Below the pieces are notes generated by a model, which was not told where the DNA came from, ran no database searches, and worked only from the letters and a program-made list of their open reading frames with translations. Shown in pieces: positions 8,107 to 33,173 of a DNA stretch of 64,000 nt. Within the stretch, counting starts at the first letter, position 1. Every line of letters starts with the position of its first letter. The translations under genes and the position numbers were made by a program. The stretch is from positions 77,246 through 141,245 of the forward strand of contig NZ_JAVDPC010000003.1 in the NCBI RefSeq assembly GCF_031296915.1, written 5' to 3'. The stretch is from Cerasicoccus frondis. GTDB taxonomy: Bacteria; Verrucomicrobiota; Verrucomicrobiia; Opitutales; Cerasicoccaceae.

Positions 8107-8418
8107 TGTTTGAAGTAGGCTTGATAAATAAATCGAAGCATCTGTGAGGCAGCTGAATGTAGTTTCTTATAGAAAATCTGTACAATTCGTTTTCGTCAAT
8201 TTGAATTGAGTAACATGGTGATTCGTAATCATTCTAAGATTTATAGTATGTCATGTTAGAGGCGCCGTGAGAAGATGAGTCGCAAGGGTGTGTCAATGTG
8301 ACTCTGTTGGTGGCGATTTGTTTGTGCTTTATGATTTTGTAAGATGTTAGAATAAAGCAGTTTGTGAAATTGGGTTTCGTTTTTTCACTCTCGGCACGCA
8401 ACCTGCCCTTAGGTAGGC

Positions 8419-11037
8419 ATGAATATCGATTTTAACCGCTTTACCGAGAAGGCCCGTGAGGCCGTGATGGGGGCGCAGAATGATGCCCGCCATCGGAACC
8501 ACCAACAGATTGACGGGTGGCATTTGCTGCAGGCATTGCTGGAGCAAGAGGGGGGCATTGTCCCGAGCCTGCTCAACAAACTGGAGATTACGCCCAATGC
8601 CGTGAAGCTCGCTAACGAGCGCGAGCTCGACCGTTTGCCGTCCGTGACGGGCAGCACCAGCGCCAACAATGTCTACGTGACGCAGGCGCTGCAGGATGTC
8701 TTTACCTACGCCGAGAAGCAGGCGCAGAAGCTCAAGGACGAATACGTGTCCGTGGAGCATTTGCTGCTGGGCCTCGTCGCGAACAGGGACGACAAGTTGC
8801 GTGCGTTTTTTAAGTCCTTCAACCTGGACGAAAAGCGCGTGTTGGAAGCGCTCACGCAAGTGCGCGGCAACCAGCGCGTGACCTCGCAGAACCCGGAGTC
8901 GACCTACGAAGCCCTGGCAAAGTATGGGCAGGACCTCGTGGAGCTCGTCAAGCAAGGCAAGCTCGACCCGGTTATTGGGCGCGACGACGAGATTCGCCGC
9001 GTGATCCGTATTTTGTCCCGTAAGACGAAGAACAACCCGGTGCTCATCGGCGAGCCCGGCGTTGGCAAGACCGCCATCGTCGAAGGCCTCGCCCAGCGGA
9101 TTGTGCGTGGCGACGTGTCCGAGGGCTTGAAGGACAAGACCGTGTTTGCGCTCGACCTCGCGAGCCTCGTAGCTGGCGCGAAATATCGCGGCGAGTTCGA
9201 AGAACGTCTCAAGGCCGTGCTGAACGAAATCAAGTCCAGCGACGGCAAGGTGATCCTCTTCATCGACGAGCTCCACACGATTGTGGGCGCGGGCAAGACC
9301 GAAGGCGCGATGGACGCGGGCAACATGCTCAAGCCCATGCTGGCCCGCGGCGAGCTGCGCTGTATCGGCGCGACCACGCTCGACGAATACCGCAAGTATA
9401 TCGAGAAGGACGCCGCGCTGGAGCGCCGTTTCCAGACGGTTATGGTTGACCAGCCAACGGTCGAGGACACGATTTCGATCCTGCGCGGCCTGCGCGAACG
9501 TTTCGAAGTGCACCACGGCGTGCGCATTCAGGACGCCGCGCTGGTGCAGTCGGCGGTGCTGAGCCATCGTTACATCAGCGAGCGCTTTTTGCCAGACAAG
9601 GCCATTGACCTCGTCGACGAAGCCTGCGCGCAGATTCGCACGGAAATGGACTCCATGCCCGCCGAGCTCGACGGCCTCAACCGTCGCGTCATGCAGCTGG
9701 AGATCGAAGAGCAGGCCCTCAAGAAGGAGAAGGACGAAGCCTCAAAGCAGCGCCTCGAAACGCTGCGCAAGGAGCTGTCCGACATCCGCGAGAAGGCCAA
9801 TGCGCTGCGCGCCCGTTGGGAGGCTGAAAAGGCCGAGCTGGGCAAGGCGCAAAAGGTTCGCGAGGAGATTGACCAAGTGCGCCAGCAAATGGCTGAAGCC
9901 GAGCGGGTTTACGACCTGCAAAAGCTCGCCGAGCTGCGTCATGGCCGCCTGCCTCAGCTGGAGCAACAGCTAAAGGACCTCGAGGCCAAGGAGCACAAGC
10001 AAGTCGAGAAGGGAGACACCCTCGTGCGCGAGGAAGTTTCCCCGGAAGAAATCGCCGAGATTGTGGCGCGCTGGACGGGCATCCCGGTCACGCGTCTGGT
10101 CGAAGGCGAGCGCGACAAGCTGCTCAACTTGGAGAACGTTTTGCACGACCGCGTGGTCGGCCAAGACGAAGCGGTGACGCTCGTCAGCGAAGCAATCCTG
10201 CGTGCGCGTTCGGGGATTAAAGACCCGCGCCGGCCGATTGGTTCGTTCCTCTTTTTAGGACCGACGGGCGTCGGCAAGACCGAGCTCGCGAAGACCCTGG
10301 CGGAGTCGCTCTTTGACACCGAGGACAACATTGTGCGCATCGACATGAGCGAGTACATGGAGAAGCACAGCGTGGCTCGCCTGATCGGCGCGCCTCCGGG
10401 GTATGTCGGTTACGATGAGGGCGGTCAGCTGTCCGAAGCCGTGCGCCGCAAGCCGTATTCGGTGGTGCTGTTCGACGAAATCGAAAAGGCCCACCCGGAC
10501 GTCTTCAACGTGCTGCTTCAGATCCTCGACGACGGTCGCATCACCGACAGCCAGGGGCACGTGGTGAACTTTAAGAACACCGTGATCATCATGACCTCCA
10601 ACGTCGGCAGCCGCTACCTCATCGAGGGCGTCTCCGCGAACGAGATCCCTGAGAGCGTTCGTGAATCGGTGATGACAGAGCTGCGTGCAGGATTCCGTCC
10701 GGAATTTCTGAACCGCATCGACGACATCATCCTGTTCAAACCGCTCAAGCTGGAAGAGATCACGCGCATCGTGGACCTCCTCGTGGCCGACTTAAACAAG
10801 CGCCTCGAAGACCGCCGCGTCACGGTTACTTTGGATGACAAAGCTCGTGAGTGGGTTGCCGAGCGCGGCTACGATCCGGTCTATGGCGCCCGCCCGTTGA
10901 AGCGGTTCTTGCAGAAGCGCGTGGAGACGCAACTGGCCCGTAGCCTGATCGCCGGCGACATCGGCGAGGGCGACCAAGTCAGCTTCACGATCGAGGACAA
11001 CGAACTGCAGATGCAGCAGGTCCAAGCAGTTTCATAG
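8419..11037 (+). CDS. clpB: ATP-dependent chaperone ClpB
   Basis: Clp N domain, two AAA+ modules (GEPGVGKT; GPTGVGKTE), a long coiled-coil middle domain and 872 aa, consistent with ClpB. Confidence 0.95.
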
Positions 11038-26920: not shown

Positions 26921-27469
26921 TAGCGAACAGGATGCATAAGTTTCTGTGTAGCAGTCGGCAAGGCGTAACGGCGCGAACCTTAGCATTAGTTGTTCCCAAT
27001 GCAACGCTTAGGTGAAGATTCCCGAAATCACTTGATTTCGACCCGGGATTAACTTTCCTGCAACCACTTTTATGAAAAACACAACCATACAGTCCACCAC
27101 CACCGTCGTCAGAAACGCTGGCGCTGCGAAGCGCTTCTTTAGCGTGGCATGGCAGGTGACCCGACGTATGGGCGTCCTGTGTTGGGCGATCGCGGTTGCC
27201 GTAATCAATTTGGGAGACGCTTAGGCCATTCTGGCATTTGCGTTATTCGGCGGTTGACTCAAGAAGCCTGTTGGTTTCTAACAATATTTTTCACGAACAA
27301 TGATCACGCGACTCACAGTCATATTATGCCGACAGGGCAGTCATGAGGATTTCTCAAAGAATCCACAATGGATTGGCTATGGCTCCATGGGCCGAGGGCC
27401 GCGTGTGTCCACTGAACGACTAACGCATTTTTGCGATCGATAGAAGTTTACTACGAACACATTCGTTTG

Positions 27470-27503
27470 GCCCGGTTAGCTCAATCTGCTTCCGGGCTTT
27501 TTT
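27470..27503 (+). terminator. Orphan intrinsic terminator on the + strand (GCCCGG...CCGGGC + T6)
   Basis: Hairpin plus T-run with no annotated + strand gene upstream. Possible sRNA 3' end. Confidence 0.4.
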
Positions 27504-27612
27504 GTGCGCTGCTGATGGCGCTGACCTACCGCAACCGGTTAGTTAGCCGCCCGGGCGGAGCTTGAAATATTGATACATAAAAATAAAAAATAAAAAAATA
27601 TAATATTTAAAT

Positions 27613-27831
27613 TTGACAGAGCAATTAACTTCGGAAATTATTCCGAGCATCAACCAACTAAACGACATGCACCTGATTAACCACATACCAAACTGCTCCG
27701 AGCGACTCGGTGACTTAGGCATTAATACCGCCTATGGGTCACAGACGAGTTGGGCAGATTTTCGCCAAATGGCGAGAGGGTGCGCTTCACCCAAACCGCG
27801 AAAGAGCGGTTGTCGGTTTACTAAGGATTAA
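27613..27831 (+). CDS. Small hypothetical protein (72 aa) with a strong AT-rich promoter-like region upstream and an intrinsic terminator downstream
   Basis: Extremely AT-rich stretch at 27566-27612 (AAAAATAAAAAATAAAAAAATATAATATTTAAATTTGACA). ORF followed by the hairpin at 27861-27905. Confidence 0.35.
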   Translation: MTEQLTSEIIPSINQLNDMHLINHIPNCSERLGDLGINTAYGSQTSWADFRQMARGCASPKPRKSGCRFTKD

Positions 27832-27860
27832 CCGAAATGAGTTATCAAATAACCAGTGAA

Positions 27861-27905
27861 GCCCGAGTCGCCCTCCAATCAAGCACTCGGGCCTTTTTGT
27901 TTTTA
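27861..27905 (+). terminator. Intrinsic terminator (GCCCGAGT...ACTCGGGC + T-run)
   Basis: 8-bp stem followed by CTTTTTGTTTTT. Confidence 0.55.
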
Positions 27906-28100
27906 CAGCATTTAAAGCAACAGTTGAACGGCGCCCTGGCCGCCTTATGTCAGGTAGAACGTCTCGTAAATGGCGTCCAAACCGCGATACCGGCCACTCC
28001 CGGAAATCGCGAGAGGGGCGAAACAGCAGTGCTTTATCTATAAATCAAAGCTGGGCATCGCCCCAGCAATCGGACGCGAAACCGCGTCTTTTAAATTCAA

Positions 28101-28135
28101 CCGTCGGCGCGCTATGCCCGGCGGTTCACTTTTTT
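28101..28135 (+). terminator. Hairpin plus T-run immediately upstream of tRNA-Trp
   Basis: CCGTCGG...CCGGCGG stem followed by TTCACTTTTTT. Confidence 0.4.
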
Positions 28136-28140
28136 GCAAT

Positions 28141-28214
28141 AGGAAGGTGGTGTAACGACAACATGCGAGTCTCCAAAACTTGAGCCGAGGGTTTGACTCC
28201 TTCTCTTCCTGCCA
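28141..28214 (+). tRNA. tRNA-Trp (CCA)
   Basis: 74 nt. Acceptor AGGAAGG/TCTTCCT (one G-U). Anticodon arm CGAGT-CTCCAAA-ACTTG. T arm GAGGG-TTTGACT-CCTTC, with a T at the position of the usual T-loop C56. Encoded CCA. Confidence 0.6.
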
Positions 28215-28267
28215 CCAAAGCGCAGCTTTGGAAACTGGATGCTGTCGCATCCAACTTTCTCTTTTGT

Positions 28268-28343
28268 TCGGCGGTAGTTCAATTGGTAGAACCCCTCCCT
28301 GTTAAGGAGGCAGTTACAGGTTCGAAGCCTGTCCACCGAGCCA
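28268..28343 (+). tRNA. tRNA-Asn (GTT)
   Basis: Canonical cloverleaf. D arm GTTCAATTGGTAGAAC, anticodon loop CTGTTAA, T loop TTCGAAG, encoded CCA. Closely resembles bacterial tRNA-Asn. Confidence 0.8.
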
Positions 28344-28389
28344 CCAAGGCTTCGCCTTGGAACCGAGAAACTGCGTGTCTCATTTTTTC
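28344..28389 (+). repeat. tRNA-associated tandem-hairpin repeat, copy a
   Basis: CCAAGG-CTTCG-CCTTGG, then AACCGAG, then GAGAAAC-TGC-GTGTCTC, then ATTTTTT. Confidence 0.6.
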
Positions 28390-28443
28390 GCGCTTCGGCA
28401 TGCCTTCGGTCAGCCCTGTCCACCAATTTCATAAACGCCTGAG

Positions 28444-28505
28444 TGCATGATAAACGCGCCGCGTTTCTATAATTAACGAATGGCTGCTACTGAGATACAA
28501 TGATC
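28444..28505 (+). promoter_or_regulatory. Repeated promoter-like element, copy 1
   Basis: CATGATAAACG...TCTATAATTAACG...TACTGAGA, with a TATAAT -10-like hexamer. A near copy lies at 29973-30040. Confidence 0.4.
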
Positions 28506-28615
28506 TCCGAAGCCATCACTATTACCTTAAAGGGAAGATGCCGCCGTCTGTGTTGGAACACCAGGAAATGGCCCTCTGCTAGGATGCGGAGAAAACCAGA
28601 CGGCGGCGCAATTTT

Positions 28616-28653
28616 CCAAGGCAAGCCTTGGAACCGAGATGCTGCGCATCTCA
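28616..28653 (+). repeat. tRNA-associated tandem-hairpin repeat, copy b
   Basis: CCAAGG-CAAG-CCTTGG, AACCGAG, GAGATGC-TGC-GCATCTC, A. Sits immediately 5' of tRNA-Ser. Confidence 0.6.
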
Positions 28654-28661
28654 CATTCTAC

Positions 28662-28750
28662 AGAGGATGCTGCGTAGTGGGTTGCGACGCCGCTTGCTAA
28701 GCCGCCGATTCCCCGTGGGGAATGTGGTTCGATTCCACCGTCCTCTGCCA
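28662..28750 (+). tRNA. tRNA-Ser (GCT), class II
   Basis: 89 nt. Long variable arm TTCCC-CGTG-GGGAA. Anticodon loop TTGCTAA, with a C-C mismatch in the anticodon stem. Acceptor AGAGGAT/GTCCTCT. Encoded CCA. Confidence 0.6.
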
Positions 28751-28762
28751 ACTTTCTATTCT

Positions 28763-28838
28763 GGCCAAGTAGCCCAACGGCAGAGGCATCGGTCTTAAGA
28801 ACCGTAATGTGTGGGTTCGAATCCCTCCTTGGTTACCA
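28763..28838 (+). tRNA. tRNA with a Leu anticodon (TAA) but class I (short variable arm) architecture
   Basis: 76 nt. Anticodon arm TCGGT-CTTAAGA-ACCGT. T arm GTGGG-TTCGAAT-CCCTC. Discriminator A73. Encoded CCA. Confidence 0.5.
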
Positions 28839-28864
28839 ACTTTACGTTGCAACGAGATTGGATT

Positions 28865-28940
28865 GGGCGGGCATGTGCCATGGAGGCGACAGTGCTTTGC
28901 AAGCATCGTGCGGCGGGTTCGATTCCCGTACCGTCCACCA
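28865..28940 (+). tRNA. tRNA-Ala (TGC)
   Basis: Anticodon loop TTTGCAA. A G3-U70 wobble pair, the Ala identity element, is present. The D arm is poorly formed by eye. Encoded CCA. Confidence 0.6.
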
Positions 28941-28956
28941 ATTTTATTTACTGCAT

Positions 28957-29030
28957 GGTGATGTAGCTCAATGGCAGAGCAACCGGCCGATAACCGGTCG
29001 ACCCTGGTTCGATTCCCGGCATCACTACCA
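28957..29030 (+). tRNA. tRNA-Ile (GAT) with C33
   Basis: Canonical D arm GCTCAATGGCAGAGC. Perfect anticodon stem ACCGG/CCGGT with loop CCGATAA, so C where U33 is expected. Encoded CCA. Confidence 0.65.
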
Positions 29031-29084
29031 GCAGGGCTGGTCATAAATTCCGCGTACCGCAATCCGCGTACCGCAATTTCTTTT

Positions 29085-29157
29085 GCCTCCTTAGTTCAAT
29101 GGTAGAACAGCCGGTTTTGCCCGGTTGACCGTGGTTCGATTCCATGCGGGGGCGCCA
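29085..29157 (+). tRNA. tRNA-like gene with a 6-nt anticodon loop (TTTTGC); identity undetermined (Lys/Gln-like)
   Basis: Good acceptor, D arm (GTTCAATGGTAGAAC) and T arm. The anticodon stem CCGG/CCGG leaves only a 6-nt loop. Encoded CCA. Possibly a pseudogene. Confidence 0.4.
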
Positions 29158-29161
29158 ATTT

Positions 29162-29258
29162 CGTAGAGTGCGCGAGTATGGCTAAAGCGACTTGGCTTGG
29201 AACCAAGTGAATTGCCCCGTTGGCCGTTCCGTGGGTTCGAATCCCACCTCTGCGACCA
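29162..29258 (+). tRNA. Class II-like (long variable arm) tRNA carrying a UGG (Pro) anticodon
   Basis: 97 nt. Acceptor CGTAGAG/CTCTGCG. Leu-like D arm. Anticodon arm CTTGG-CTTGGAA-CCAAG. 23-nt variable arm with a hairpin. T arm GTGGG-TTCGAAT-CCCAC. A73. Encoded CCA. Confidence 0.4.
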
Positions 29259-29295
29259 AGTTTCTAAATATGCTTTGCATTGCAAAGCTTCTGAT

Positions 29296-29371
29296 GGGCT
29301 CATGGTGAAAGCGAAGATCATGCAAGGGCGCGAACCTTGCGTTGGAGGTTTGAGTCCTCCTGAGCCTACCA
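29296..29371 (+). tRNA. tRNA-Arg (GCG) with C33 and T-loop TTTGAGT
   Basis: Perfect anticodon stem CAAGG/CCTTG with loop GCGCGAA. Acceptor GGGCTCA/TGAGCCT. Encoded CCA. Confidence 0.55.
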
Positions 29372-29411
29372 GCAGGGCAATGCCCTGCACCCGAGATACT
29401 GGCGTATCTCA
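29369..29411 (+). repeat. tRNA-associated tandem-hairpin repeat, copy e (variant)
   Basis: CAGGGC-AAT-GCCCTG, ACCCGAG, GAGATAC-TGGC-GTATCTC, A, followed by a T-rich run. Confidence 0.5.
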
Positions 29412-29426
29412 TATTCTTTCTTAACT

Positions 29427-29504
29427 GCAGGTGCGTGGCCCAAGGGGCAGGGGCATCAGGTTGTGAGCCTGGGGAAGTGGGTTCGAATCCCACCCACCTG
29501 ACCA
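29427..29504 (+). tRNA. tRNA-His (GTG) with a G-1 extension
   Basis: Anticodon arm TCAGG-TTGTGAG-CCTGG. An extra 5' G precedes the acceptor stem. Encoded CCA. Confidence 0.6.
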
Positions 29505-29507
29505 CCG

Positions 29508-29547
29508 CCAAGGCTACGTCTTGGAACCGAGATGCTGCCGCATCTCA
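29508..29547 (+). repeat. tRNA-associated tandem-hairpin repeat, copy c
   Basis: CCAAG-GCTACGT-CTTGG, AACCGAG, GAGATGC-TGCC-GCATCTC, A. Confidence 0.6.
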
Positions 29548-29590
29548 TGGCTTCGCGATTAGTCATGCGCTCTTCGTAACTCCCTTTCAT

Positions 29591-29662
29591 CGCAGAGTAG
29601 CTCAACGGATAGAGCTCCGGTCTCATACGCCGGCGGTACGGGTTCGATTCCCGTCTCTGCAA
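29591..29662 (+). tRNA. tRNA-Met (CAT), initiator-like (C1-A72 mismatch), without an encoded CCA
   Basis: Acceptor CGCAGAG/CTCTGCA with the terminal C-A mismatch seen in bacterial tRNA-fMet. Anticodon arm CCGGT-CTCATAC-GCCGG. A73 is followed by CTG, not CCA. Confidence 0.6.
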
Positions 29663-29669
29663 CTGTTTC

Positions 29670-29744
29670 GGGTGCATCGTCCAGCGGCTAGGACAACGCA
29701 TTGTCTATGCGAAAACGCCGGTTCGATTCCGGCTGTGCCCGCCA
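29670..29744 (+). tRNA. tRNA-Asp (GTC)
   Basis: D arm GTCC-AGCGGCTA-GGAC. Anticodon loop TTGTCTA. T arm GCCGG-TTCGATT-CCGGC. Encoded CCA. Confidence 0.7.
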
Positions 29745-29752
29745 TTTTAATT

Positions 29753-29827
29753 TACGGGATAGTGTAGTCGGTAACACCGCAGATTTTGAATCTGCTATCG
29801 GAGGTTCAAACCCTTCTCCCGTAGCCA
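29753..29827 (+). tRNA. tRNA-Gln (TTG)
   Basis: Perfect acceptor TACGGGA/TCCCGTA, D arm GTGT/ACAC and anticodon arm GCAGA-TTTTGAA-TCTGC. Encoded CCA. Confidence 0.8.
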
Positions 29828-29865
29828 AAGCAAGCTTGGAACGGAGTTGCTGAGCATCTCATTTT
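29825..29865 (+). repeat. tRNA-associated tandem-hairpin repeat, copy d
   Basis: CCAAAG-CAAG-CTTGG, AACGGAG, GAGTTGC-TGA-GCATCTC, ATTTT. Confidence 0.55.
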
Positions 29866-29884
29866 GCCATCTCAATTTTTCTCT

Positions 29885-29960
29885 GGCGCTGAACCCCAAT
29901 GGCGAGGGCGCGGGCCTGCAAAGTCCGCTCTATCGGGTTCGAATCCCGGCGGCGCCTCCA
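29885..29960 (+). tRNA. tRNA-Cys (GCA)
   Basis: Anticodon arm CGGGC-CTGCAAA-GTCCG. Discriminator U73, the Cys identity element. Encoded CCA. Confidence 0.75.
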
Positions 29961-29972
29961 ATATTTCAGCGA

Positions 29973-30040
29973 CCATGATAAACGAAGTGCGATTCTGTAA
30001 TTAACCTCGTCCTTTCGAAATATTATACTGAGAGCATGAA
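29973..30040 (+). promoter_or_regulatory. Repeated promoter-like element, copy 2, at the start of a ~500-bp AT-rich spacer inside the tRNA array
   Basis: CATGATAAACG...TCTGTAATTAACC...TACTGAGA parallels copy 1. Confidence 0.35.
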
Positions 30041-30508
30041 ACATTCTAACTAAAATAAAGACTAAACAGCGTAACTAACGATCCGCCATGATATACAAAC
30101 TGTATTCAAAATTAGCTGATAATCCGGAAAAGATTTTAAAGGAGTTTAGGCTCAGAGTGAACTTTTCTGGAGACAGGTGATAAACTAATACACGAAATTA
30201 TGACATCGCCAATTATTGTAAGCGAAACGAGATATGATTCGTCTTCAGCGGGCTCAGACATGATCAGAATCGGGACCAGTCCATTCTTTTAAAACCCATC
30301 TCGTGGTATCATTCAATTCTCGGCTCATGAGTAATTTTTGCATTCCGCCAATCACATGAATTTCTGCGCGCTCAATCGAACGTTCGGTTAGCGCGCTCAT
30401 AACCCTTTCCACGTCGGTCGACGGCGGCGTCTTGCGTCCATTTTGATGGTCTTGCGATTCGCCGTTCCGTTTCAGGCAGTCTAAGCGACGTGAGAAACAT
30501 AGACATCT

Positions 30509-30583
30509 GAGGATATAGCTCAGTGGTAGAGCAGCTCGCCGTAAGCGAGTAAGTCGGCGGTTCGATTCCGCTTATCTTCGCCA
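30509..30583 (+). tRNA. tRNA with a Tyr anticodon (GTA), class I architecture and C33
   Basis: Canonical D arm GCTCAGTGGTAGAGC. Anticodon arm GCTCG-CCGTAAG-CGAGT. Short variable loop (bacterial tRNA-Tyr is normally class II). Encoded CCA. Confidence 0.5.
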
Positions 30584-30586
30584 AGA

Positions 30587-30658
30587 GAACTGTTAGCTCA
30601 GTTGGTAGAGCAGTGGATCGAAAATCCATTAGTCTCGGGTTCGATTCCCGAACAGCAA
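30587..30658 (+). tRNA. tRNA-Phe (GAA)-like with C33 and a degenerate 3' acceptor strand; abuts tRNA-Thr; probable pseudogene
   Basis: The body closely matches bacterial tRNA-Phe (AGCTCAGTTGGTAGAGC; anticodon loop TCGAAAA). The 3' strand ACAGCAA pairs with only 4 of 7 acceptor positions. No CCA. Confidence 0.45.
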
Positions 30659-30660
30659 TC

Positions 30661-30738
30661 GGAAAAGTAGTGCAGTCAGGTTAGCGCACTGGTCTTGTAA
30701 ACCAGAGGTCGAGGGTTCGAATCCCTCCTTATCCACCA
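30661..30738 (+). tRNA. tRNA-Thr (TGT)
   Basis: Anticodon arm CTGGT-CTTGTAA-ACCAG. T arm GAGGG-TTCGAAT-CCCTC. Encoded CCA. Confidence 0.75.
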
Positions 30739-31115
30739 AAGGAAGTCACGGTTAAGACTTAAAAAATGCCACTAGCATAGGGTGCTAGCAATGCCAGTAC
30801 GAGAGGAACGCAAAGCAAAAACAAAAGCCCAAGGGGAGCCTTGGCATTTCGTGAAAGCCCGGCGCGGATTGTTTAGCAATAGGCAGTTTCGCGCCAGCGC
30901 CGCGGCCGCTTGTGTCGGCGTGGATACCGGTTGCTACTTGACTGGGCAAGACGGCGGTGCATACCGCGCACGTTGGGTATGGATGCGATTGAGGCGAACC
31001 TGAGGCAGCTTCTTTCGTGGAAATACTCTGCGTTGCAAAGTATGCGCCAAAGTCGCGCTCAGCCAACTGGCTTCCTTAAGCGCGGACCCGCGAGTCCGCC
31101 GCGTGGCTGATCGAT

Positions 31116-32759
31116 TTGTCCAACTCCCCGCGGGCCCATTTTCTTTTTAACCTAAGTGCAGACGCATGGCTGAGCGTGACCCCGGAAGGTTACGGCTGCG
31201 TGCGTTGTGTGCTTCTTCTGAAACCTCAACCCAACACGAACATGATCCCGATCAAATATGTGAACATTCCGTATGAGCACTTTGGTCTCGTTTACCGTGA
31301 CGGACGTTTCGTGAAGCTGCTGAAGCCGGGTCGCACCTGGTACTTCGATCCACTCTGGCGAGTGTCCATCGGCAAGCTCTGGCAGGGCAAGCCGTGGATC
31401 GAAATGCCGGCGACGCAGCTGCGTCAGCTTCGCGAATCTCCCGCCATTCAAGAGCACGCAGCGTTCATAGACCTGAAGGATACGCAGCGCGCGCTCGTTT
31501 GGCTGGACGGCCGTTTCCACGGCATCCTCGAGCCGGGGCTCTACGCCTACTGGAAAACCGTCGTTGAAGTCCGCGTGGAAATCATGGATGTGCGCAACAT
31601 CCTGTTCCGCCACGACGAAGCCGACGTCATCCTCAAGACCGCTGTGGCCAAGCGTTACCTAGACGTTTACGAAACTGCCGAAAACCTCGGCAGCGTAGTT
31701 TACGTGGACGGACGCTTTCACGGCGTTTACGGTCCGGGAACCATTGGCTACTGGAAGAACGGTCTGACCGTTCGCCGTGAGTCCTTTGCGCTCCCGTGGC
31801 TACCGATGCACGACAACGAACTCGAAAAGCTCCGTGAAGACGGTCAGCTCGACGCGTTCGCATCCTTCGTCGATGTTCAGGACAACCAGCGCGCACTGGT
31901 GTGGTTTAACGGCCGCTTCCATTGCATTCTGGGGCCGGGCCTCTACGCCTACCTAAAGGAAGGGCATGAGGCCCGCGTCAACCTGATCGACGCGACGATG
32001 CCGCAGTTCATCTACGATGAGCTCGACGTCATCTTTAAGCACGCCGAGGCGCTTCGCCAGCTCGCGGTTTACGAAATCGGAGACAACGAGCAGGGCGTGC
32101 TTTACCAGGATGGGAAGTTCACTGAACTTCTCTCCCCGGGCCGCTACGCGTTCTGGAAGGATGTGGGCAACGTCCGCGTCCGCCAATACGATCTGCGTGA
32201 GCAAGTCCTCGACGTGAGCGGGCAGGAAATAATGACGGCAGACAAGGTAACCCTGCGTCTGAACGCCGTGCTGACCTACCGCATCGTCGATGTCCGCAAG
32301 GCAGCTGAAACCGTGAAGGACGCCGAACAGGCGCTCTACCGTGAGCTTCAACTGATCATCCGTGCGGAAGTCGGCGGCCGCACCCTCGACCAATTGCTGA
32401 CGGACAAGACTGCGGTGGCGCACGACGCCCTGAAGTCTATCCAGCAAAAGGCCGAAGGCTACGGTCTCGCAGTCAAGGGGCTGGGTATCCGCGATGTCAT
32501 CCTGCCGGGTGACATGAAGGAGCTCCTGAACCAAGTCATCGAAGCCGAAAAGGCCGCCCAAGCCAACGTCATCAAACGCCGCGAAGAAACGGCCGCCATG
32601 CGCAGCCAGCTCAACACGGCCAAGATGATCGAAGACAACCCGACGCTCCTGCGCCTGCGAGAGCTCGAGACGGTCGAAAAGATCGCTGAAAAGTCGAACC
32701 TGCAAATCTTCGTTGGGGATGGGCAGGGGCTCACCAAGAGCATTGTCAAACTAGTCTAA
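31116..32759 (+). CDS. SPFH/Band-7 domain protein with five N-terminal tandem ~35-aa repeats (DGRF...PG.YA.WK)
   Basis: C-terminal half carries an SPFH domain plus coiled coil (...VTLRLNAVLTYRIVD...IRDVILPGDMKE...). The N-terminal half has 5 repeats of Y.DGRFhg.L.PG.Y.YWK...VR. No TM helix found. An alternative start is at 31242 (MIPIKY). Confidence 0.65.
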   Translation: MSNSPRAHFLFNLSADAWLSVTPEGYGCVRCVLLLKPQPNTNMIPIKYVNIPYEHFGLVYRDGRFVKLLKPGRTWYFDPLWRVSIGKLWQGKPWIEMPATQLRQLRESPAIQEHAAFIDLKDTQRALVWLDGRFHGILEPGLYAYWKTVVEVRVEIMDVRNILFRHDEADVILKTAVAKRYLDVYETAENLGSVVYVDGRFHGVYGPGTIGYWKNGLTVRRESFALPWLPMHDNELEKLREDGQLDAFASFVDVQDNQRALVWFNGRFHCILGPGLYAYLKEGHEARVNLIDATMPQFIYDELDVIFKHAEALRQLAVYEIGDNEQGVLYQDGKFTELLSPGRYAFWKDVGNVRVRQYDLREQVLDVSGQEIMTADKVTLRLNAVLTYRIVDVRKAAETVKDAEQALYRELQLIIRAEVGGRTLDQLLTDKTAVAHDALKSIQQKAEGYGLAVKGLGIRDVILPGDMKELLNQVIEAEKAAQANVIKRREETAAMRSQLNTAKMIEDNPTLLRLRELETVEKIAEKSNLQIFVGDGQGLTKSIVKLV

Positions 32760-32810: not shown

Positions 32811-33173
32811 ATGCTTGAAATTTACACCGCAAAAATTAACTTTGTGGGGCAAAGTAATCGCCCCCTCATGTCGAAGAAAATCGTTGAAGATCTTGCCTGC
32901 TCGCTCTGCGGTCGCGCCACACCGGCTAAGCATGCCGAGAAACATCACCTAGTGCCGCGATCCAAGGGCGGGACGGACACCATTGATGTTTGCCGAAACT
33001 GCGGCGACCAGGTCCATAAGCTTTTTTCGAATAACGAACTTCGCGACGAATACAACACGCTGGAGAAGCTGCGAACCGCACCGGGAATGGAGAAATGGAT
33101 CCGCTGGGTGCGCAAGCAGGATAGCTTCACCTTCTCGATGAAGTCGCCCAAGGGCCGACGCTCGGACAAGTAG
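32811..33173 (+). CDS. Small HNH endonuclease
   Basis: CSLCG...HHLVPRSKGG...CRNCGDQVH fits the HNH zinc-finger nuclease pattern. Possible start at 32868. Confidence 0.7.
   Translation: MLEIYTAKINFVGQSNRPLMSKKIVEDLACSLCGRATPAKHAEKHHLVPRSKGGTDTIDVCRNCGDQVHKLFSNNELRDEYNTLEKLRTAPGMEKWIRWVRKQDSFTFSMKSPKGRRSDK

Follow-up and report, generated by a model that had tools for sequence, protein, structure and literature searches.

Several genes in a long array of transfer RNA (tRNA) genes are closely followed by the same small structured repeat, which raises the question of whether this repeat is a device of the tRNA genes or an element that has settled among them. The array lies in a 64-kb stretch of DNA (the window), which is chromosomal DNA of a Cerasicoccus-like verrucomicrobium. 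The repeat, referred to here as the unit, is about 40 nt long, consists of two hairpins, and is present in six copies, all on the + strand, within a 1.65-kb segment of the tRNA array. At a rough probability of 0.45, our preferred interpretation is that the unit is a lineage-specific, non-autonomous modular hairpin repeat, resembling repetitive extragenic palindromic (REP) sequences and bacterial interspersed mosaic elements (BIMEs), which would have colonised a dispensable tRNA array with a preference for 3' boundaries. This was favoured over a tRNA-specific device because protein genes of related phages and bacteria are followed by the unit as well.

Anatomy of the unit and its copies in the window

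The unit is built of hairpin 1 (7 bp with a loop of 2-3 nt), a 4-nt linker, hairpin 2 (7 bp with a loop of 3-4 nt) and a terminal A. It forms a head-to-tail pair of two unlike 7-bp hairpins, with the consensus GAGAWRC in hairpin 2 and AMCC in the linker. Two subtypes were distinguished: in subtype A hairpin 1 is CCAAGGC/GCCTTGG and the linker AACC, and in subtype B they are GCAGGGC/GCCCTGC and ACCC. Hairpin 2 was found as GAGATGC, GAGAAAC, GAGATAC or TGGATGC, each with the complementary 3' arm.

The first copy (u0, 28215-28254; CCAAAGC-GCA-GCTTTGG AAAC TGGATGC-TGTC-GCATCCA A) starts 0 nt after the encoded CCA of tRNA-Trp; it scored 58.7 bits and folded at -19.1 kcal/mol (z = -4.8), with both stems compensated (repeat finder and covariance model). 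Copy u1 (28344-28382; subtype A; 65.8 bits) likewise adjoins a CCA, that of tRNA-Asn, with 0 nt between them, and a T6 run comes after it; hairpin 2 carries an A-G mismatch, and the copy folded at -14.1 kcal/mol (z = -2.5). The canonical subtype A copy, u2 (28616-28653; 67.9 bits), is situated 8 nt after a leader hairpin (28540-28615) and 8 nt before tRNA-Ser. Subtype B is represented by u3 (29372-29411; GCAGGGC-AAT-GCCCTGC ACCC GAGATAC-TGGC-GTATCTC A; 59.6 bits; -22.7 kcal/mol, z = -5.1), 0 nt after the CCA of tRNA-Arg. Copy u4 (29508-29547; subtype A; 60.9 bits) begins 3 nt after the CCA of tRNA-His and has one G-U pair in hairpin 1. The last copy, u5 (29825-29861; 49.2 bits), whose first three bases are the CCA of tRNA-Gln, is decayed: hairpin 1 is lost, hairpin 2 has a T-T mismatch and the fold of the module is gone (z = +0.24). 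Folding energies of the copies other than u5 ranged from -14 to -23 kcal/mol, with z from -2.5 to -5.1. A possible remnant of subtype B, GCAGGGC at 29031-29037 (+ strand), directly follows the CCA of tRNA-Ile and is itself followed by two copies of TCCGCGTACCGCAA; as a 7-nt match, it was assigned tentatively.

An initial annotation of this DNA had listed five copies, all of which were recovered at their coordinates; its count was incomplete, as the copy after tRNA-Trp (u0) makes a sixth. The anatomy it had described (CCAAGG/CCTTGG in hairpin 1, AACCGAG as the linker, GAGATGC/GCATCTC in hairpin 2) applies literally to u2 and u4, the latter with its G-U pair, and not to the other copies. Neither was the linker found to be invariant, being ACCC in u3 and AAAC in u0, nor hairpin 2 perfect in each copy, given the mismatches in u1 and u5. 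The further proposal that the copies represent one element conserved in sequence and structure agreed with both the alignment and the covariation described below.

Statistical and covariation support

The recurrence of the unit in the window exceeded expectation. With up to three mismatches allowed, the 16-nt core had four matches vs. 0.6 expected, and 0 of 100 shuffles reached four; the stems of the unit were the only 7-bp hairpin stems recurring within the window. A covariance model derived from the copies gave the window copies 49-68 bits and the next best matches, on the opposite strand of these palindromes, 23 bits or less, with no seventh unit elsewhere in the 64 kb. The core sequence CTTGGAACC that had been noticed in a long-arm UGG tRNA was scored by the model at 8.7 bits (E = 2.1); it is just the anticodon stem-loop of that tRNA and the likeness is coincidental.

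For the analysis of covariation, 16 copies were aligned (6 from the window and 10 from outside). In this alignment, which was fitted to the model and includes several copies related by descent, standard pairing was found in 97.8% of cells, and 7 of the 14 pairs had changed on both sides, in 30 cells; a single G-U pair was the one-sided change. None of 500 shuffles reached the observed pairing values, and when the partners were slid by 1-3 columns, pairing fell to 28-46%. Loops were free to vary, and the stems and the linker were kept. Judged from these sequences, both stems are clearly backed by compensatory change, and the switch between subtypes A and B and the variants of hairpin 2 are clear despite the caveats of the alignment. 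The data would be compatible with a folded RNA or with folded single-stranded DNA; the asymmetry between G-U and A-C, as a discriminator of RNA and DNA folding, was uninformative with one G-U pair in 224 cells.

Position of the unit relative to genes

In the initial annotation, units had been placed at the CCA of the Asn, Arg, His and Gln genes or immediately downstream of it, and one unit before Ser. The former positions were confirmed, with a 3-nt gap at His and an overlap at Gln, and the copy before Ser (u2) was found also to lie behind the leader hairpin, so that all six units of the window follow an RNA element. Independent insertion sites are few (approximately 13, counting those outside the window); at 12 of the 13, the unit was co-oriented with the upstream gene and started 0-9 nt past the 3' end of that gene.

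The sequence downstream of each unit is an entire, native-looking T-rich spacer. Because the unit-free spacers of this array look similar (CCA-ACTTTCT, CCA-ATTTTAT), the T-runs after units were regarded as ordinary spacer sequence. A role as a terminator, as had been suggested, is weak. A consensus scan detected 8 terminator-like sites in the region vs. 5.3 +/- 2.6 in shuffles, which is not above expectation, and flagged only hairpin 2 of u0 and of u3 among the units. The T6 run in the window occurs only after u1, whose stem is mismatched, and no U-tract was present in the 10 copies outside the window, including those of phages and metagenomes.

In five of the six array copies the unit takes up the upstream end of the spacer, and in phages it does so in longer insertions. 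Compact spacers push insertions near gene ends but do not account for this placement at the upstream edge. The position rule suggests either selection at the RNA level or an insertion mechanism that is both strand-specific and boundary-specific.

Presence and absence in related arrays

Loci with the orthologous slipin gene were compared from C. fimbriatus (L127) and from L129, L225 and L229. In these four relatives, arrays of 7-13 differing tRNAs are located upstream of the slipin gene, and their content differs completely between lineages; tRNA counts at the orthologous locus were 17 in the window, 9-10 in C. fimbriatus and 7 in L129. Because same-locus arrays of relatives differ in composition, the array was considered to be evolving fast and to belong with the long tRNA arrays described in PMC8421152.

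The unit itself was patchily distributed among these loci. C. fimbriatus contains one unit in 21.5 kb (L127 7967-8004), directly after tRNA-Trp and orthologous to u0. The more distant relatives L129, L225 and L229, with differing chromosomal neighbourhoods, have the array upstream of the slipin gene and no unit. Single spacers could be compared directly: that between Arg and His reads CCA-unit(u3)-spacer in the window vs. CCA-spacer alone in L129/L130, and that between Gln and Cys holds the decayed u5 in the window vs. a 14-nt tandem repeat (TCCGAATTCCGCAA) in C. fimbriatus. On this comparison of loci, the unit would be a recent addition in the Cerasicoccus lineage, outside the basic design of the array.

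Other small spacer modules were also observed. A 14-nt module is repeated twice in tandem both after tRNA-Ile in the window (TCCGCGTACCGCAA, 29049-29076) and between Gln and Cys in C. fimbriatus (TCCGAATTCCGCAA, L127 8634-8662). After tRNA-His, L129 has a single hairpin resembling part of the unit (8869-8893; GGCCAAG-AGATCTC-CTTGGCTCA), and L225 has a solo stem like that of hairpin 1 (8365-8391; GCAGGGC-ACA-GCCCGGC), followed by TTTTT. These solo hairpins may be related modules or a chance likeness.

Occurrence in phages and other Opitutales

Viral and metagenome collections were scanned as a whole with exact or structure-aware patterns, and complete units were found only in two viral contigs (L001/L133 and L005, with three copies each) and two metagenome contigs (L131 and L132). 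Cultured phages and plasmids gave no significant match to the unit. A search of 185,579 species genomes for the exact core yielded at least 119 loci; there was no complete unit among the matches listed, and these 16-mer matches were rejected as chance.

The two phages carry a lambda-type module of terminase, portal and protease genes. The nearest cultured relative of their portal protein is that of Verrucomicrobia phage P8625, which has a Puniceicoccales host, and the unit-bearing phages probably infect Opitutae (Puniceicoccales/Opitutales). At two of their sites the unit immediately follows a TGA, that of a methyltransferase gene and that of the gene in front of the portal gene; at the third site the portal stop codon falls within the loop of hairpin 1. 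No tRNA is present at the phage sites. At the portal-protease junction of L133 and L005, two units form a tail-to-tail pair, the + strand carrying subtype A and the - strand subtype B. Each of the two single insertions (L133b and L005b) is missing from the other phage and likewise from L134/L135, the genes there abutting or overlapping, and 77 other related phage loci (~1 Mb) contained no unit. In the slot of the unit pair, between the portal and prohead-protease genes, three further loci have a tRNA-Met(CAU) overlapping the portal stop (L134/L135 11499-11571; L136 11727-11796). A chromosomal and a phage copy of the unit were identical at 36 of 38 bases.

The metagenome contigs L131 and L132, of 1.5 kb each, come from one uncultured Opitutales population and have at least three units between protein genes. 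In L131, two convergent genes each have their own co-oriented unit 8-10 nt downstream, forming an inverted pair with other hairpins in between. In L132, an open reading frame (ORF) runs through the unit and encodes 227 aa vs. ~211 aa in homologues (~15 residues longer); after this unit come three hairpins tagged with GTAA and one tagged with GTAG. Such GTAG/GTAA-tagged hairpins are also carried by the intergenic regions of both contigs. The related contig L224, with 98% protein-level identity to L132, has retained hairpin 1 together with the linker ACCC, next to an unrelated hairpin 2, which indicates that the hairpins are exchangeable modules.

Since complete units follow protein genes in phages and Opitutales contigs, the unit is not tRNA-specific. 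The link to tRNAs proposed in the initial annotation holds for this genome, where units mark the 3' ends of tRNA genes, and is not a general rule. Dispersal apart from tRNAs, which had been named there as the sign of a generic REP-like element, was found in part, with phage contigs and Opitutales intergenic copies having no tRNA nearby.

Interpretation of the unit

The reading as an invasive repeat is based on patchy gain and loss in three separate systems, on the unrelated contexts of the copies and on modular exchange, as well as on inverted pairs, on mosaics that include tagged palindromes, on copies reaching into ORF ends and on the tolerance of a decayed copy. These features were weighed against the position rule, and for this reason the REP-like module was ranked first and an RNA 3'-end element second. 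A REP-like unit would spread non-autonomously, by transposition or illegitimate recombination, and would land, or survive, only flush with the 3' end of a gene and in the orientation of that gene. In this genome it would have colonised a hypervariable and probably dispensable array, between the CCA and the T-rich spacer of six RNA genes; the enrichment in the array would plausibly result from many suitable boundaries in weakly constrained DNA. If transcribed, the unit would form a stable double-hairpin trailer at the 3' end of precursors. Such a trailer should block 3' exonucleases, so that 3' maturation of the tRNA would be delayed or altered and, in phage operons, the upstream mRNA stabilised. 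The family appears to be small, and we lean, with reserve, towards its being restricted to Opitutae (Puniceicoccales/Opitutales) bacteria and to phages probably infecting them.

Several observations weigh against a REP-like repeat. The copy number looks low: there were no units in the other 62 kb of the window or in ~50 kb of flanking DNA of relatives, and none that was complete among the genome loci listed, and the whole-collection viral and metagenome scans gave only the two viral and two metagenome contigs. Some REPs are mobilised by REP-associated tyrosine transposases (RAYTs); no transposase turned up here, and no search aimed at transposases was made. Neither a target-site duplication nor a constant target sequence was seen at the insertion sites (left flanks GCCA, ACCA, ACCG, TTTT, GCGA, TTGA, GTGA, CTGG and others). 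The orientation and 3'-end rule is atypical of classic REPs and fits a dedicated RNA function equally well, and the 36/38 identity of chromosomal and phage copies could reflect recognition of the sequence by a protein instead of recent spread. Finally, the GTAG or CGTC tag that is a hallmark of two large REP superfamilies (PMC3733652) was absent from the 16-copy alignment, in which the stems are flanked by AMCC and the 3' A (GGKT and T on the other strand).

The alternative that survives best, although it seems somewhat unlikely, is a dedicated RNA 3'-end element, that is, a processing, stability or attenuation signal (exonuclease block, endonuclease landmark or weak terminator) which would punctuate polycistronic tRNA and phage late transcripts through a lineage-specific factor. 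The position rule speaks for such an element, as do the convergent genes of L131, each with its own copy, and the covariation that maintains both stems. The tRNA-Met of L134-L136, occupying the slot of the unit pair of L133/L005, could mean that the two are interchangeable punctuation, and the T6 run after u1 is followed ~90 nt further downstream by a promoter-like repeat. However, the unit is not kept at orthologous sites and related arrays manage without it; one decayed and one mismatched copy are tolerated, an inverted copy occurs in phages, hairpin 2 can be replaced by an unrelated hairpin (L224) and the unit may fall inside a reading frame (L132). The lack of a U-tract outside the window and the unremarkable number of terminator-like sites disagree with a weak terminator, and a conserved sequence would be unnecessary for a simple exonuclease block.

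Between a REP-like repeat and an RNA signal lies a more far-reaching possibility, which we consider unlikely: an undescribed 40-nt strand-specific element homing to exact gene 3' boundaries (tRNA CCA and ORF stops) in Opitutae and their phages. It would be either mobile, with a new kind of targeting, or a "punctuation mark" of RNA that is transferable and can trade places with a tRNA, and its spread would help to drive array turnover. Interchangeability of unit and tRNA is suggested by the portal-protease slot, which has a tRNA-Met or a unit pair depending on the phage.

A recombination site for cassette exchange, site-specific or acting through dispersed homology, by which tRNAs would be gained, lost or reordered in an attC-like manner, is improbable. 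It would suit the sharply different content of arrays at the same locus, and three breakpoints relative to C. fimbriatus fall on unit edges. A 1-kb window-specific block begins exactly at the 5' end of u2; homology to L127 is back only 28 nt past u1; and the lone L127 unit matches both u1 and the 5' part of u0, as would result from recombination between units that collapsed or expanded the segment u0-tRNA-Asn-u1. Yet the unit-free arrays of L129, L225 and L229 are equally variable, so that the shuffling of tRNA cassettes, as envisaged earlier, is not needed to explain the rearrangements, and other breakpoints lie within tRNA T-arms. No integrase or recombinase is adjacent, the only nearby candidate being a small HNH gene beyond the slipin gene; there is no attC-like architecture or GTTRRRY core, and single units occur in contexts other than arrays. 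As a separate observation, a tRNA-Tyr 3'-end remnant (CAGCCCTGTCCACCA) was detected at 28411-28428; its match in C. fimbriatus is an intact tRNA-Tyr (L127 8104-8192). The remnant shows a deletion of Phe-Tyr in the window, downstream of u1.

A duplex DNA binding site, with two palindromic operators for dimeric proteins (an array regulator, a nucleoid protein or a phage protein), would suit two palindromic, sequence-conserved hairpins and the very high identity of a chromosomal and a phage copy, but is very improbable, as the paired double changes (subtypes A/B and the four variants of hairpin 2) alter half-sites in a way that fits a folded strand, strict orientation is unexpected of a symmetric site, and no candidate regulator was linked to the unit in every context.

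Should the unit be a REP-like repeat, it would add a small new family of repeats to a phylum that has received little study, of use mainly for annotation and for tracing exchange between Puniceicoccales hosts and the phages that infect them. The spacers of long arrays would be open to structured repeats flush with the CCA, which should interfere with the 3' maturation of the affected tRNAs. Because this placement should disturb maturation, the unit may offer a handle on the expression, silencing or decay of accessory arrays. If the 3'-boundary rule reflects a targeting or processing mechanism, the unit would matter more broadly, to the study of RNA processing and of mobile elements.

The tRNA array and its neighbourhood

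The array comprises 17 tRNA genes, all co-oriented on the + strand, at 28141-30738 (~2.6 kb), with which Rfam concurs; CCA is encoded in nearly all of them. It lies inside a 4-kb non-coding stretch, free of credible ORFs, between an ABC-transporter operon and the slipin gene. A search of Rfam 15 over 27000-32000 (E <= 1) returned only tRNA-type matches and weak sub-threshold matches overlapping tRNA genes, and left the units unmatched. The flanking genes of the window are chromosomal (ValRS, MscK, transporters and glycosidases); together with a megablast against phages that gave no match, this led us to reject a phage origin of the window.

The slipin gene (31116-32759) shares 94% identity with that of Cerasicoccus fimbriatus (Verrucomicrobiota, family Puniceicoccaceae). 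Its ORF as listed begins at a TTG at 31116; since the 505-aa homologues align only from residue 43 (MIPIKYV...), the true start is probably the ATG at ~31242. In five Puniceicoccaceae lineages, a tRNA array of 7-17 genes was observed directly upstream of this long-form (505-aa) slipin/SPFH gene, and the genes on the far side differ per lineage (ABC transporter, ribosomal protein L25, DegT, a hypothetical). The array and the slipin gene look like a linked module, with an HNH gene next to them in the window, L127 and L128. This small HNH gene (32811-33173) was confirmed in the window and is absent in L129. It had been put forward as a protein that might bind the units; the gene is real, but no HNH gene was identified near units in the scanned phage ORFs or the short metagenome contigs, and with its uneven presence beside the slipin gene it was rejected as a partner of the unit on evidence too weak to use.

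Within the array, a promoter-like module (CATGATAAAC-N-TCTATAATTAAC followed by TTAAC(G/C)-17-TAnAnT) is present in two copies on the + strand and is conserved in C. fimbriatus. Copy 1 (28446-28501; CATGATAAAC..TCTATAATTAAC, then TTAACG-17-TACAAT) is kept in L127, and copy 2 (29974-30029) has TTAACC-17-TATACT. A consensus site TTGACA-17-AATTAT was observed at 27613-27641, ~500 nt upstream of the first tRNA and preceded by A/T-rich DNA. From these motifs, copy 1 appears to start a second transcription unit, and the array appears to have at least three.

The leader hairpin at 28540-28615 (+ strand; GCCGCCGTCTG...CAGACGGCGGC gcaatttt), between promoter-like copy 1 and u2, has orthologues in L127 (8309-8386) and L129 (8153-8230), with three compensated pairs over the three species. 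This element of ~70 nt has an 11-bp outer stem in which changes are compensated (GCCGCCGTCTG in the window and GCCGCCGCCCG in L129), as well as a T-run and a conserved inner hairpin, and a permissive Rfam scan of 27000-32000 gave no match to it. It may be a leader, an attenuator or a small RNA that controls the second part of the array. A second non-coding block, of 58 nt, was observed at 30227-30306 (L127 8997-9083; L129 8502-8600): it is 96.5% identical between the window and L129, with ~72-87% in neighbouring matched segments, and a conserved stem of 7 bp, ACGAGAT/ATCTCGT, encloses it. The block matched nothing in Rfam, and covariation among the three sequences was absent; its identity would point to a strongly constrained non-coding element within the array region.

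Some of the tRNA genes are themselves unusual. A long-arm (class-II shape) tRNA of 97 nt with the proline anticodon UGG is encoded at 29162-29258; long-arm tRNAs with proline anticodons are common to three arrays (L229 5107-5204, UGG; L225 8960-9056, CGG), with 83.5% identity between the window and L225. A long-arm tRNA that reads proline codons is out of the ordinary; it could recode or mistranslate, or be an RNA that acts outside translation. Between the window and C. fimbriatus, anticodons switch from Tyr-GUA (30509-30583) to Asp-GUC (L127 9268-9341) and from Thr-UGU (30661-30738) to Thr-CGU (L127 9419-9496), and the gene at 29085-29157 has a malformed anticodon loop (ARAGORN call tRNA-???). 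The anticodons of the array appear to be evolving quickly.

Comparison with known systems

The unit shares with intrinsic terminators its GC-containing hairpins directly 3' of genes and in gene orientation, with T-rich tails on some window copies. In contrast to a terminator, in which a U-tract follows the hairpin within 0-2 nt, no such tract belongs to the unit: it is lacking outside the window, and the window tails are ordinary post-CCA spacers. Moreover, terminators do not keep their sequence across unrelated loci and genomes, and the phage units lie within a late operon that has to be transcribed past them.

With integron attC sites the unit has in common a structured repeat 3' of several short co-oriented "cassettes" in a variable array, and a structure that is stricter than the loops. 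It differs in having two separate 7-bp hairpins vs. the single long imperfect hairpin of attC, in that most array tRNAs are unit-free and in its occurrence outside arrays. No R''/L''-L'/R' boxes were found in the unit alignment, and there was no integrase among the genes flanking the array.

Miniature elements of the IS200/IS605 type likewise lack terminal inverted repeats and target duplications, have a hairpin at each end and insert strand-specifically. The hairpins of the unit are, however, unlike each other, there is no constant target tetranucleotide, and 40 nt is far below described derivatives; with hairpins 1 and 2 unrelated and the left flanks varied, this assignment was rejected. A CsrA-type GGA site in the linker was also rejected on inspection, subtype B having no GGA.

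Long tRNA arrays have been reported in Verrucomicrobia and their tRNAs described as supernumerary (PMC8421152). The 17 tightly spaced, co-oriented tRNAs of the window, with content varying between relatives, have the structure of such an array. A term search of PMC8421152 found hairpins, stem-loops and spacers unmentioned, hence no repeated spacer hairpin module is described there; the unit is not general among the related arrays examined here.

From REPs and BIMEs the unit differs in being usually a head-to-tail pair of unrelated hairpins with a fixed 4-nt linker, head-to-tail REP dimers being reported as rare, and in its very low apparent copy number, strong co-orientation with the upstream gene and, in this genome, confinement to the tRNA array. 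Inverted dimers and mosaics of the BIME kind occur only outside the window (L133, L005, L131 and L132), the six copies of the window being direct. Opitutus terrae is reported to be highly enriched in REPs, intragenic ones included (PMC3733652). As in REPs and BIMEs, the hairpins of the unit are short (~20 nt each), structure-conserved palindromes close to gene 3' ends, and every copy is located between genes or at the very 3' end of an ORF, which is occasionally entered. The unit is further like them in its patchy distribution among close relatives, in the 3' hairpins it would be expected to form in mRNA and in its appearance singly, as a two-stem heterodimer, in inverted pairs and in mosaics with other hairpins.

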